DNA of 64,000 nucleotides from Dictyostelium discoideum (lineage: Eukaryota), in assembly GCA_000004695.1 (NCBI GenBank), contig CM000151.3:3424001-3488000 (forward strand), in the 5' to 3' direction. The translations under genes were made by a program, and so were the position numbers. Positions 39,611 to 45,700 of this stretch are shown in pieces (the first letter of the stretch is position 1; the number at the start of each line of letters is the position of its first letter). The notes beneath the pieces are model-generated. The model made no database searches, was not told the DNA's origin, and saw only the letters and a list, made by a program, of their open reading frames with translations.

Positions 39611-41086
39611 ATGGTTGTACTTTCAAAATATAATGAATTTACAATTATTAATCAATTAAATGATGATAATTCAATATTATTTTTTAAAATTTGGAGAAAT
39701 ATTGTATTAAAAAAAAAGATATGGCAAGATGCAATTTTAATATCAAAATATGATATTCAAAATATTAAAGAAATAAAACAATTAAGAGAACATAAATATA
39801 GAGAATATATTAGAACAATTAAATTTGTTGATCATTTCAATGATTTATTAGAAGAAGGTGATATTCCAAACAATGTTTCAACAATTGATTTTGGTGTAGC
39901 ATTTGATACAAGAATTAGTGCTAGAGTTTTACCAAATTCGCTTACAACCCTTGACTTGGGCATACAATTTAATCAATCCATTGATTGTGGTGTTTTACCA
40001 AAAAATTTAAAAAATATTTATTTTAGTCATTTATTCAATAAACCAATACTAGTAAACTCAATTCCAAATAGTGTTAAATTAATTGATTTTAGAAATTCGC
40101 CATCGTTTAATACTGAAATTAAAATTGGATCATTGCCAAACTCATTAACCTCTTTAAATTTAGGGTATAAGTATAATATTAAATTTAAAGAAGGAGTTTT
40201 ACCAAACTCTTTAAAAAAATTAATAATTTCAGAAAATTACAATTTTCCAATTAAAAAAGGTGATTTACCAAATAGTATAACTAGTTTAACATTGGGAAAT
40301 TATGATCAAAATATTAAATCAGATGAGTTACCAGAAAGTTTAAAAGTTTTAATAATGGGCCCACTACAAACAAAACAAATTGAAATTTCAAATTTGAAAT
40401 ATATTGAAAAATTGACATTATCAGATTACTATGATGTTCAATATAAAGATTTTCCAAAATCTTTAAAAATTTTAAATTTAGCTTATAAATATAATAAACC
40501 AATTTTACCAAATTCTATTGACAATATTACTGAAATTACATTTGGTAGTGAATTTAATCAACCTATTGAATTGAGTACATTCAAGTCAATTAAGAAATTA
40601 GTATTTGGTGCTAGATTTAATCAGGAATTGAAGCCATATACTTTGAATGATGGTATTGAGAGTTTATCATTTGGTTATTTTTATAATAAAAAATTTCAAT
40701 CAAATAGTTTACCATCGACATTAACTTATTTAAAACTTGGTAGAGAATTTAATCAAATAGTTGAGCCTGGTATATTCCCAAACTCAATCAAACATTTAAT
40801 CTATAGTAATTTAAATAAATCACCATTGACCATTGGTATATTACCATCATCACTTGAAACTTTAGAATTTTTATTTTTCAATGCACCAATTGAGCCATTT
40901 TCAATTCCAAATGGTTGTAAAAAGATTATTTTAAGTTCACAATTTCAAAATCATTCAATTTCAAATAATGTTATACCAAATACTTGTACTGAATTAACAA
41001 TTTCTGAATTATATAAAAGAGAATTATTAGATTTAAATTCATTACCAAAAGGTTGTAAATTACTATATGCTTTATTAATTAATTAA
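39611..41086 (+). CDS. FNIP-repeat-containing protein (491 aa), single exon; a paralogue of the gene at 24973..26406
   Basis: At least 15 FNIP repeats, for example IDFGVAFDTRISARVLPNSLTTLDLGIQFNQSIDCGVLPKNLKNIYFSHLFNKPI. Confidence 0.8.
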   Translation: MVVLSKYNEFTIINQLNDDNSILFFKIWRNIVLKKKIWQDAILISKYDIQNIKEIKQLREHKYREYIRTIKFVDHFNDLLEEGDIPNNVSTIDFGVAFDTRISARVLPNSLTTLDLGIQFNQSIDCGVLPKNLKNIYFSHLFNKPILVNSIPNSVKLIDFRNSPSFNTEIKIGSLPNSLTSLNLGYKYNIKFKEGVLPNSLKKLIISENYNFPIKKGDLPNSITSLTLGNYDQNIKSDELPESLKVLIMGPLQTKQIEISNLKYIEKLTLSDYYDVQYKDFPKSLKILNLAYKYNKPILPNSIDNITEITFGSEFNQPIELSTFKSIKKLVFGARFNQELKPYTLNDGIESLSFGYFYNKKFQSNSLPSTLTYLKLGREFNQIVEPGIFPNSIKHLIYSNLNKSPLTIGILPSSLETLEFLFFNAPIEPFSIPNGCKKIILSSQFQNHSISNNVIPNTCTELTISELYKRELLDLNSLPKGCKLLYALLIN

Positions 41087-41225: not shown

Positions 41226-42020
41226 TTATGCTACACATTTAAAATCACTACAATTAATAAAACACTCACCAACTGGGTCAACTCTTTGCCAACGCACTAA
41301 TAAAATTGCATTTGAGAAACGAGTTGGCATATTTAAATTAAAAATATAAGCAGATGTTGAAGAACATGATGGATCACTAATTGAAACACTTGCAGTATTT
41401 GGGAAACTTTGGAATAATGTTAAATGATCCCATGTTAATGGAGTTGTGGTTGGGTTGAAACCTGGTTTACTAACATAGAATTCCCAGAAATTTGGATTAT
41501 GAGAAGCAGTTGCACAGAATTTATAAGTGAAACTAACATTTACAGCATTTGCAGTTGTTGGAATAATTGTTGGTGTCCATGGTGCAACAATTGACATTCC
41601 ACTTTTATCATTTGATGATGTAGTTGCATATGCTGAACATAATGAATTTGGTACTGCTGCTTTTAAAGCACTTGCTCCTTGAGCATAATTTGGAATTAAA
41701 ACTGAAAATTCATTTGATTGAATAAATTGATATTGTGGATTATTTCCTTTTGCTTTTACAAATTGAAAAGCTGAACGACATGCAGCATCAGTAATACCAG
41801 ATCCATCCTCTGGCCACCAAATATTACCTTTTGGACATCTTATTTTAAAAAAAAAAAAAATTTAATAAATTGATATTTTATTGGAATAAAAAAAAAATGA
41901 AAAAATAAATAATTACTTTTGTTGGCGAGCCATTGGATAAATTGCATACCCATGAGAATTAATTAAAGAAATTGAAATCATTGAAATTAATGATAATAGT
42001 AAAAATTTAGAAATATACAT
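41226..42020 (-). CDS. AA10-family (CBM33-type) lytic polysaccharide monooxygenase, secreted, 238 aa, 2 exons: join(42020..41917,41838..41226) on the minus strand
   Basis: After the signal peptide (MYISKFLLLSLISMISISLINS) the mature N-terminus is HGYAIYPMARQQKC, matching the AA10 HGY..P.SR...C pattern. The second-His/Trp motif is TASHNPNFWEFYVSKPGF...PLTWDHLTL, and the C-terminal W.R.D....F block (LLVRWQRVDPVGECFINCSDF) is present. The CAAAA|GTAATT donor overlaps the apparent stop codon and the acceptor is AAAATAAG. Confidence 0.7.
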
Positions 42021-42918: not shown

Positions 42919-45700
42919 TTATTGTTGTTTTTTATCATGATTATCAACAATTTTAGCAATTGAAAATTGACATAATAAATTTTTAGCAGCATTTGAATGA
43001 GCATAAACTTCACCAGTAAACATTGAAGTTGCATCTTTACCAATACCCATTTTAATGTAAGCTAAACCACCTGGGTGATCATTAACAAAAGATTCGACAT
43101 CTAATACGGTTTTGTTGATTATCATTAACTTTTTATTTTCTTTTTCAACCAAATTATTAAATTCATCGATTGTCATTGATGGTAAATCTTCTTTATTGAT
43201 ACCCCAATAGATTGATTGTTTCTTTGCGTCTAAATGTTTTTGGTGCATTTGAATCATACCTTTTTCAATTTCATTTTTGGAGAAAGTTTTCAAATCATAA
43301 GCCAAGCCTAAATAATACATTGCAGAGATCAACCATTTAGTTGGATCATATTGATAGAATTTATAAGCGTTTCTATAGTCATTTGGGAATTCATGATGGA
43401 AGTTATGATAACCTTCACCAAATGTTAATATAGCAGTCACAACTGAATCCTTTGGAGTATGTTCATCATCGTATGGAGAGTCACCTAAATAATGAGCCAA
43501 TGAATTGACCAAGAATGTGGAATGTTGAACTGTAACGAGACGAAGTACACCAGAGTAGAAATAACCACCAGCCCAATCACCCCAACCTAAACCAGCTACC
43601 AATGTTGGGAAAACGAGACCCATAAAAGTGGCGATTTTAATGTAATGTTTATGTTGCCACATAACCCATGGATCGGCGTTAAGGTCGTCAATGTTTGCTC
43701 TACCGATTTTCTTTGGATCTTGTTTGAACATTAACCAAATGAAATGGGAATGCCAGAAACCCAATGAAGCTGAATATGGATCTTTATCAGTATCGAGATA
43801 ACGATGATGAGCACGATGATCTCTTGACCACCAACGACATGAACCTTCGACAGCACCTGCACCAAATAGCAACAAGATAATACGAACTGGTAAAACTGCA
43901 CTATAAGCCTTATGAGCCCAAAGTCTATGATAACCTGCTGTAATACCCATACCAGTGAAATGATAATAAATAAATGACCAAATAAATGTTTTCAATGAAC
44001 ACTCTACATTAATTAGACCATAGAGACCAATGAATGGAATACCAATTAAAATGATAACATGTAACCAATTGATTGATTTTAAAAATTCTTTAACAGTACG
44101 ACTTGTACGACTATTTGAAACGGCTTCAGCGGTTGCTTCTGCTTTCTTTTCTTGATCTGGTACCAATGGAGCTGAATCAAATGGTGAGAAAATTTCATTT
44201 GAAAAGTTTTCACTACGGATAATTAATTCTTTAAATAATTCAGTTTCAAATGTACATTCATAAATATATTCACCCCAACTCTTTTTAAATGAATTATAAG
44301 CTTTTCTTAGATTATAATGTGGAATTGAAACTGCAATTTGTCTTGGTAATGAAAAATTAATATCTTTAACAATAAATTCAAACCATTGTGGATATGTAAT
44401 ATGTACTAAATATTTTTCAACTTCAGATGATTTCTTATCACCTTTGTTATTGTTATTATTATTATTTGATTTTTCTAATTTTGAAGCAACTTGTAATTCT
44501 TCATAAAATGGAATTGATGGTAATAATGAAGCAGTTGAAAGTAAGAAATGTAAAACTAACCATGGTGCGAACCAATAATTAAGGAATCCACTTACACCTA
44601 CAAATTTAAACATCATTGGGAAGAAAATAAATCCAAAAATGTAAACAATTGCAATTGAAACGATTGCTTTGGTTTTATCTTTTTTATCTGATAAATTTTT
44701 AGTTGAGAAATAATTTTCAGACCAATTAATAATTGATAAAATCCAAAAGAATTTACCAGTTGCCCATTGTCTAATTGGATTTGTACTTTCGGTTGTGGTA
44801 TGTGCATTAATCTTGAATTGTTCACCATTTAAAACAGCTGTCGATTTCTTTTCTGCATTATTCTTTTCTGAAATCTTGTAAGATTGGAATGGATATAACA
44901 ATGGTAACATTACAATTGTTCCAATAATTGAATTAACTAATGGATTCTTTGAAAAAGTTTTATGAATACAATCATTACCAATTACCATTAACTATTAGTG
45001 TGAGAGGTTGTCATATTTTAAAAGATATTAAAAAAAAAAAAAAAATAAAAAATAAAAAAAAAGTTTTGTTGGGTTAGTGATTAGATATTTTGGAAAAAAA
45101 AAAAAAAAGATGCAAATAAAAAAAAAAAATTTTAATTATTTTTAATTATTATTTTTTTTTTTTTTTTGTTTTTGTAAAATGGGTGCTTTTTTTTTTTTGA
45201 TGGTAATCAAAAAAAAAATAAAATAACAATCATTGTGATTGAAAAAAAAAATTTGGTAGTCTGGAACTGTGACGGTTTTTTTTTTTTCCCACTTGAAAAT
45301 TTCAAGTCACTTTCAGAAAAAAAAAAAAAAAAAAAATTTTGTTTAAAAAAAATAAAAAAAAAGTGAAAATGGAAATAATAAAAAATGAATGAATAATAAT
45401 TGTATTACTTACACCAGTAACTGAGGCACCCATTAACATCCAACCAATTGGGGTTAAGTAAGATGGCATGAGAGTAATGAATGTTGCACTTAAACCAATG
45501 AATAAGATTGTTATTAAAAGTGAACATGCTGATTTAAAATTACTTGTTTCAAAAACTTCTTTTGGAAGAGATTGTAAAATTTGATCAATAGTTAATTCTT
45601 TTGGTAATGATTTTGGTTGTTTTCTAATTGGTTTAATATTTCCATACATAACAGATGGATAAACTTTCTCCTTTAAAGGAGCTCCACTTCCTTTACCCAT
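42919..45700 (-). CDS. Tri-domain membrane desaturase-like protein (about 786 aa): an N-terminal FAD2-like domain with degenerate His boxes, then a delta-9 acyl-CoA (stearoyl-CoA) desaturase, then a C-terminal cytochrome b5; 2 exons: join(45700..45413,44991..42919) on the minus strand
   Basis: The delta-9 part has three intact His boxes (HRLWAHKAY; HRAHHRYLDTDKDPY; HNFHHEFPNDY) and the cytochrome b5 part has DHPGG. Exon 1 (MGKGSGAPLKEKVYP...LTPIGWMLMGASVTG), with a GGT|GTAAGT donor and acceptor CACTAATAG, is colinear with FAD2-type desaturases across the splice (TG-LMVIGNDCIHKTF versus TGIWVIAHECGHHAF). In this domain His box 1 reads NDCIHK, box 2 reads EKNNA and box 3 is lost. Confidence 0.7.

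Follow-up and report, generated by a model that had tools for sequence, protein, structure and literature searches.

A 64,000-nucleotide stretch of the Dictyostelium discoideum genome (GenBank assembly GCA_000004695.1, contig CM000151.3, positions 3,424,001 to 3,488,000; hereafter the window, with coordinates counted from its first nucleotide) carries on its minus strand, at 41226-42020, a gene whose product matches family AA10 of the lytic polysaccharide monooxygenases (LPMOs). With a probability of roughly 0.78, we read this gene as a native, vertically inherited dictyostelid gene that would encode a small, secreted, single-domain copper LPMO of the fusolin/GP37-like AA10 subgroup, likely acting on chitin. 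A secreted copper LPMO is the best-supported identity for the product because all catalytic residues are conserved across dictyostelids, and their conservation looks like purifying selection. As judged from sequence, the active site is that of a normal AA10 enzyme and nothing departs from that pattern.

The gene consists of two exons separated by a short spliceosomal intron. Exon 1 (41917-42020, minus strand, 104 nt) starts with the ATG at 42020-42018, covers the predicted signal peptide plus 12 residues of the mature protein and ends after the second base of the Lys35 codon. The intron (41839-41916, minus strand, 78 nt) is of the GT..AG type with boundaries GTAATT...AATAAG, lies in phase 2 inside the Lys35 codon and has a GC content of 7.7%. 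Exon 2 (41226-41838, minus strand, 613 nt including the TAA at 41226-41228) encodes the remaining LPMO_10 catalytic domain. The spliced coding sequence of 717 nt yields 238 amino acids and a stop codon. This splice model is corroborated by the fusolins and all orthologues, which align without gaps across the junction between ...ARQQK and CPKGNIWWPEDG. The translation is identical to the annotated D. discoideum AX4 protein DDB_G0273103 = DDB_G0273835 (100% identity over 100% of the length). In AX4, the protein is carried under two locus names with two GenBank protein accessions, which presumably reflects the known chromosome 2 duplication of this strain. A tblastn search for paralogues within the 64-kb window returned the gene itself only, as a single copy. 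The initial annotation had described a two-exon minus-strand gene for a 238-residue protein and had quoted a series of motifs. The gene structure is confirmed and all of the motifs are present, namely HGYAIYPMARQQKC starting at His23, ASHNPNFWEFYVSKPGF containing His148, PLTWDHL and the C-terminal RWQRVDPVGECFINC block with Trp218 and Phe228.

Assignment to AA10 is far beyond chance, as the Pfam LPMO_10 profile (PF03067, AA10) matches residues 23-234 over its entire length (profile positions 1-183 of 183) with E = 1.1e-35 and 124 bits, the cut-off being 23 bits. The family originally proposed is thus upheld by a full-length profile match. LPMO_10 is the sole Pfam domain, and the protein ends at residue 238, about 4 residues past it, with no carbohydrate-binding module (CBM), GbpA_2 domain, C-terminal extension, anchor or adhesin-type domain. 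An AlphaFold2 model built from an input of 24 homologues has a mean predicted local distance difference test score (pLDDT) of 84.5 and a predicted template modelling score (pTM) of 0.83, with disorder confined to the signal peptide. When this model was compared with the Protein Data Bank (PDB) using Foldseek, the best 39 matches were chains of AA10 LPMOs or of chitin-binding (CBM33) proteins, with AA9 and AA11 chains ranking next. The predicted structure is the immunoglobulin/fibronectin-like beta-sandwich fold of LPMOs.

The histidine brace claimed by the initial annotation is intact, and all residues of the AA10 catalytic site are kept: His23, Ala146, His148, Glu226 and Phe228. His23 (codon CAT, 41952-41954, minus strand) is the predicted mature N-terminal histidine and first ligand of the histidine brace, and aligns to residue 1 of the deposited fusolin chains 4x27, 4ow5, 4yn2 and 4yn1. 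It is invariant in two of our alignments (A2 and A3) and near-invariant in a third (A1), and 232 of 240 full-length homologues have histidine in this column. The second brace histidine, His148 (codon CAT, 41499-41501, minus strand), lies in the motif FCATASH together with Cys143 and Ala146, is invariant in all three alignments (A1-A3) and is matched by histidine in 237/240 homologues. The adjacent codons for Glu226, Cys227 and Phe228 (41259-41267, minus strand) specify a second-shell glutamate, a dictyostelid-specific cysteine and the axial phenylalanine; the Glu226 column is Glu and the Phe228 column Phe in 237 of the 240 homologues each. Trp218 and Arg220 are likewise invariant or nearly so in this set. 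Glu226 and Phe228 are equivalent to Glu206 and Phe208 of AsLPMO10B from Aliivibrio salmonicida, which are its co-substrate-positioning and axial residues, respectively (PMC9361615).

The N-terminus has the features of a secretory leader. Residues 1-22 (MYISKFLLLSLISMISISLINS; coding region 41955-42020, minus strand) are predicted to form a signal peptide on the basis of hydropathy, the alignment to fusolin His1 and the layout of the orthologues. In the hydropathy profile, Lys5 represents the n-region and is followed by about 15 hydrophobic residues (6-20), with Ser at position -1. All orthologues have a hydrophobic leader ending in a small residue, followed by HG(Y/F). The secreted-type leader noted earlier is therefore present and ends exactly before His23, and we infer that the signal peptide is cleaved between Ser22 and His23. 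Removal of the 22 residues would turn His23 into residue 1, whose amino group and side chain would, together with His148, hold one copper ion in a histidine brace. Phe228 would occupy the axial position, Glu226 would position O2 or H2O2 from the second shell and Ala146 would lie near the copper. Once an external electron donor had reduced Cu(II), the enzyme would oxidatively cleave glycosidic bonds at the flat face of a crystalline polysaccharide, with the conserved surface aromatics Tyr25 and Trp42/Trp43 potentially contributing to substrate binding. Copper binding and oxidative activity are predicted properties of the protein.

The nearest solved relatives of the protein are viral fusolins. 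A sequence search of the PDB returned four entomopoxvirus fusolins at the top (E = 1.4e-45 to 1.2e-40), with AsLPMO10B in second place (7okr, E = 1e-26). The next tier comprises T. fusca AA10A, the fern protein Tma12 and Streptomyces and Micromonospora enzymes (E = 1e-10 to 1e-7), followed by CbpD (E = 2e-6), while CBP21 is reached only at E = 0.04. Foldseek gave the same order, with template modelling (TM) scores of 0.81-0.83 for the fusolins (E = 1e-19), 0.67 for AsLPMO10B and about 0.5 for CBP21. The label of a bacterial-type enzyme such as CBP21, given in the initial annotation, is consequently not borne out. It is also countered by a pair of cysteines, Cys143 and Cys193, that is common to fusolin and GP37 and occurs in no named bacterial homologue. 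An HMMER search of 1.84 billion representative sequences identified 259 proteins at E < 1e-3. The best of these after the dictyostelids are unnamed metagenomic proteins, the spindolin/fusolin of Heliothis armigera entomopoxvirus (40% identity, E = 7.8e-42) and modular gammaproteobacterial LPMOs, among them that of Simiduia agarivorans (43% identity, E = 4.5e-37).

Cys143, part of FCATASH, and Cys193 co-occur in 49 of the 240 homologues and neither is ever found without the other. The carriers are all dictyostelid sequences, the fusolins, baculovirus GP37 and unnamed metagenomic sequences; among the named bacterial homologues of the 240-sequence set there is none. Cys193 sits in a loop that is missing from the bacterial proteins. 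The strict co-occurrence suggests that the two residues form a disulfide. We built a neighbor-joining tree from Scoredist distances with the Cys143 column masked and six unstable or His-less sequences removed. In this tree, the Cys-pair group forms a clade with 56% bootstrap support. The dictyostelid sequences are monophyletic with neighbor-joining bootstrap values of 92-99% (99% in the pruned Scoredist tree). An affinity with fusolin and GP37 is favored because of the shared cysteine pair and the tree grouping, each of which is moderate evidence, and membership of the dictyostelid protein in the fusolin/GP37-like AA10 subgroup appears to be the best reading, with moderate but not robust support.

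Two further cysteines distinguish the dictyostelid proteins. Cys227, between the second-shell glutamate and the axial phenylalanine, is found in 24/26 dictyostelid sequences and in 0/214 other family members, which mostly have glycine at this position. It leaves most dictyostelid proteins with an odd cysteine count. In D. discoideum and its closest relatives, Cys236 (codon 41235-41237, minus strand) is added on the same predicted strand, where it looks too distant to pair with Cys227.

The gene shows the characteristics of a long-standing resident of dictyostelid genomes. The GC content at its third codon positions (GC3) is 0.11, compared with 0.07-0.20 in neighboring genes, and its flanks have 5-13% GC. 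Orthologues and paralogues are present in Dictyostelium, Polysphondylium, Heterostelium, Tieghemostelium, Acytostelium and Cavenderia. No other amoebozoan is named among the matches listed, an absence that applies to those lists. The D. purpureum orthologue is 63% identical and has a gene with FA_desaturase and Cyt-b5 domains upstream, in the same position and orientation as the desaturase-like neighbor in the window; this shared upstream neighbor indicates conserved synteny. GC3, the AT-rich intron and synteny with D. purpureum bear out the native origin that had been proposed. The intron itself is a less general argument than it had been taken for: it is real and AT-rich, but it is lineage-specific, being missing or located elsewhere in the orthologues. 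No intron interrupts the orthologous genes of D. purpureum and Heterostelium, and that of Cavenderia is split elsewhere, at residue 87, by a 66-nt intron in phase 1. We therefore rejected a conserved intron as a sign of age, as the comparison of gene sequences makes the intron a lineage-specific and not an ancient feature. By its distribution and genomic context, the gene is nevertheless best described as old within the dictyostelids and vertically inherited.

By analogy with its relatives, the most likely substrate of the enzyme is chitin, as present in fungal or yeast prey or in soil invertebrate debris. Chitin ranks first because the relatives in the subgroup either have chitin as their substrate or carry fused chitin-binding modules. 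Several points weigh against this combination of affinity, secretion and substrate. Dictyostelium makes cellulose and, to our knowledge, no chitin. As the protein has no carbohydrate-binding module, its domain composition gives no indication of the substrate, and the solved AA10 structures that follow fusolin and AsLPMO10B include cellulose-binding or cellulose-active deposits (7zjb, 4oy7 CelS2 and 4oy6). Position -3 of the predicted cleavage site is Ile, which appears less favored than Ala or Val by general signal-peptide rules. The fusolin-like clade reaches only 56% in the pruned tree, is lost (1%) when all 194 taxa are kept and falls to 14% in a tree based on Kimura distances. The best gammaproteobacterial-type matches have 43-47% identity, comparable to the 40% of fusolin, and raw similarity consequently fails to separate the viral from the gammaproteobacterial relatives. 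Nor does this reading account for Cys227 next to the copper center or for the additional Cys236. Finally, a 2016 review lists the LPMO activity of fusolin as N/D, as it had yet to be demonstrated at that point (PMC5094447).

Some of these points would fit an enzyme that acts on the cellulose of the amoeba itself, in the stalk tube, spore coat or slime sheath, instead of on foreign chitin, and that works with developmental cellulases in wall remodelling or spore germination. Cellulose production is general among dictyostelids, and the presence of the family in all sampled dictyostelid genera fits a role tied to dictyostelid biology. Two orthologues, P0006 and P0014, have a Ser/Thr-rich linker and a hydrophobic C-terminus that suggest anchoring at the cell surface. 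The cellulose-related PDB matches also count in its favor; one of them, ScLPMO10B, is listed as active on phosphoric acid-swollen cellulose (PASC), Avicel and beta-chitin (PMC5094447). On the other hand, within the closer subgroup, every relative for which a substrate is given or that has a fused module points to chitin (fusolin, AsLPMO10B and proteins with GbpA_2 and CBM5/12 modules), and the amoeba protein has no cellulose-binding module. We consider action on endogenous cellulose unlikely, though it carries enough weight to be kept in view.

A more far-reaching version of the cellulose proposal holds that the dictyostelid AA10 proteins are the closest cellular relatives of fusolin and GP37, which are virulence factors of insect viruses, that they act on the amoeba's own cellulose during development and that they are tuned by Cys227. 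Its evolutionary part derives from the shared extra putative disulfide and from a sister group located on contigs that look eukaryote- or large-DNA-virus-like and not bacterial. Taken as a whole, this proposal is speculative and probably incorrect in at least some of its parts. If it were true, the enzyme would represent an old LPMO lineage of eukaryotes and large DNA viruses and not a loan from bacteria, an LPMO would be used for endogenous wall remodelling, and enzyme activity would be adjusted or regulated by a clade-specific cysteine next to the copper. The fusolin-like subgroup as a whole might also have arisen from bacteria long ago.

Alternatively, the protein could bind copper or glycans through its LPMO fold without cleaving polysaccharides, serving as an adhesin, a colonization factor or in copper handling, as proposed for GbpA-like and Bim1/X325-like proteins. 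Dictyostelids do contain paralogues that lack the N-terminal histidine. In D. purpureum, DICPUDRAFT_79382 (P0056) has NGF in place of HGY and has lost the second histidine too; it lies in tandem with an intact paralogue, P0012 (D. purpureum locus L059, 6001-6976 and 7278-8294). In P. violaceum, three consecutively numbered genes, CYY_005015/16/17, lie on a contig of identical length, and the third, CYY_005017 (P0039), has RGY in place of HGY. These paralogues indicate that dictyostelids also use brace-less versions of the LPMO fold. The unusual Cys227 beside the copper site and the activity status of fusolin in the 2016 review could be read in the same direction. However, His23, Ala146, His148, Glu226 and Phe228 are all kept in the D. 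discoideum protein and in nearly all orthologues, and this conservation of the catalytic site argues for selection on catalysis and makes a non-cleaving role less likely. The protein also has neither a C-terminal anchor nor adhesin-type domains. We regard a non-cleaving function as improbable.

Recent transfer from bacteria or contamination of the assembly, for which one could cite the predominantly bacterial distribution of AA10 (PMC7571853) and the gammaproteobacterial-type proteins with up to 43-47% identity, is hardly credible and was rejected in view of the spliceosomal intron with 7.7% GC, a GC3 of 11% as in host genes, typical Dictyostelium genes on both sides, the synteny kept in D. 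purpureum, the orthologues in six dictyostelid genera that are monophyletic at 92-99% and the Cys143/Cys193 pair found in no named bacterial homologue.

A D. discoideum AA10 protein is already known at the annotation level, as the gene is annotated and its AA10 assignment is in the literature. The UniProt entry is named 'Chitin-binding type-4 domain-containing protein', and two dictyostelid orthologues are annotated as 'enhancing factor precursor' and 'fusolin precursor'. A D. discoideum AA10 protein, Q86K62, possibly the product of the present locus, was used as an outgroup (PMC7720654), and the presence of an AA10 LPMO gene in D. discoideum and its implications for the age of the family have been discussed (PMC6690862). 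The novelty implied by the initial annotation was therefore overstated. Our literature search found no paper naming DDB_G0273103 or DDB_G0273835; it found social-amoeba LPMOs mentioned in passing only, and no functional study. What is added here is the fusolin/GP37-like affinity, the Cys143/Cys193 pair, Cys227, the conserved synteny, the lineage-specific intron and the His-less paralogues. The value of the analysis lies in a corrected affinity, fusolin-like and not CBP21-like, and in showing the gene to be native and retained throughout the dictyostelids sampled. As D. discoideum is genetically tractable, it offers an easy route to the role of eukaryotic non-fungal AA10 proteins, and its LPMO also bears on whether the viral fusolin/GP37 lineage has cellular eukaryotic relatives.

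The surroundings of the gene in the window are not those of a carbohydrate-active enzyme gene cluster, a possibility that was rejected. Directly upstream lies an open reading frame (ORF) of the desaturase/cytochrome-b5 type with 689 amino acids (42919-44988, minus strand). It contains the fatty-acid desaturase histidine boxes HRLWAH, HRAHH and HNFHHEFP, with some 300 additional residues on their N-terminal side. The corresponding FA_desaturase and Cyt-b5 protein of D. purpureum, encoded in the same position, has 762 amino acids. An FNIP-repeat ORF of 491 amino acids with LPNSL.. units (39611-41086, plus strand) runs towards the LPMO gene from its 3' side, and the two stop codons are about 140 bp apart across a spacer of 5% GC. 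A large Gln/Asn-rich neighboring ORF was read, without a Pfam scan, as a putative Sec7-type guanine nucleotide exchange factor for ADP-ribosylation factor (ARF-GEF).

Several dictyostelid orthologues differ from the D. discoideum protein in architecture. P0006 (Heterostelium album), P0014 and P0009 (Tieghemostelium lacteum) are among those in which a Ser/Thr-rich linker extends the catalytic domain and leads either into a hydrophobic C-terminus that may serve as a glycosylphosphatidylinositol (GPI) or membrane anchor or into a Cys-rich tail, elements that are all absent from the D. discoideum protein. P0034 of Heterostelium album, an 896-residue protein annotated as 'phospholipid-binding protein', has an N-terminal LPMO-like region with 57% identity to the query over residues 5-152; this region and the long unrelated C-terminal part, combined in one gene model, may represent a fused gene prediction.

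The sequences adjoining the dictyostelid clade are metagenomic. They are located at 5972-7030 of L062 (Logan SRR18474643, 12.4 kb) and at 8779-9546 of L061 (JGI 3300037014, 12.2 kb). One of these two contigs has a high coding density and codes for a BIR+RING (IAP-like) protein, DEAD helicases and several fragments of MCM proteins; the second contains E2F/DP and bZIP sequences in split fragments. Metagenome scans aimed at this sister group returned no matches. A scan of viral contigs yielded 56 loci, 52 of them on contigs of 101-168 kb, one on a contig of 246 kb and three on short or metagenome-derived sequences, with nothing among the 56 loci pointing to an amoeba virus or giant-virus homologues. 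A fusolin/GP37-like gene with 33% identity to the query is found at 697-1419 of L025 (IMGVR_UViG_3300036772_000153), a 64.9-kb metagenomic viral contig, unlike most of the remaining viral matches, whose contigs measure 101-246 kb. The homologues P0088 and P0118 possess a C-terminal Cys-rich extension without a Pfam match, and an interpretation of the P0088 tail as CBM14 was dropped for this reason.

Among characterized AA10 systems, CBP21 of Serratia marcescens (2bem) belongs to the same Pfam family and shares with the amoeba protein a histidine brace with axial Phe and the beta-sandwich fold. It is nonetheless remote, as phmmer aligns only a partial stretch (E = 0.04) with about 16% identity and the TM score is about 0.5. 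AsLPMO10B and the modular gammaproteobacterial LPMOs of Simiduia, Gilvimarinus, Rheinheimera and Photobacterium are closer, with catalytic domains 33-47% identical to the amoeba protein; single-domain relatives of this group are found in Pseudomonas, Serratia and Enterobacter. AsLPMO10B shares the Glu-x-Phe arrangement and the L2 tryptophan with the amoeba protein. In contrast, bacterial proteins of the AsLPMO10B type lack both the Cys143/Cys193 pair and the loop that contains Cys193, and most of them carry GbpA_2 and CBM5/12 modules (present in P0036, P0040 and P0042), neither of which is found in the amoeba protein.

Fusolin/spindolin (4ow5, 4x27, 4yn1 and 4yn2) is closest in both sequence (about 38-40% identity) and fold (root-mean-square deviation 2.3 Å). 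Fusolins have 350-370 amino acids instead of 238 and carry a long C-terminal extension, absent from the amoeba protein, that mediates formation of a domain-swapped dimer and crystallization into spindles (PMC5094447). Unlike fusolin, the amoeba protein is encoded in a cellular genome by a gene with an intron, carries Cys227 where fusolin has Gly and has no evidence for a role in insect infection. The catalytic centers correspond closely, with fusolin His1, His142 and Phe225 matching amoeba His23, His148 and Phe228, respectively, and the L2 tryptophan is common to both (Trp42 in the amoeba protein, Trp20 in WsEPV fusolin). Both proteins also share the motifs FC(A/P)TAxH and RWQRxDPxGExF as well as the extra Cys143/Cys193 pair.

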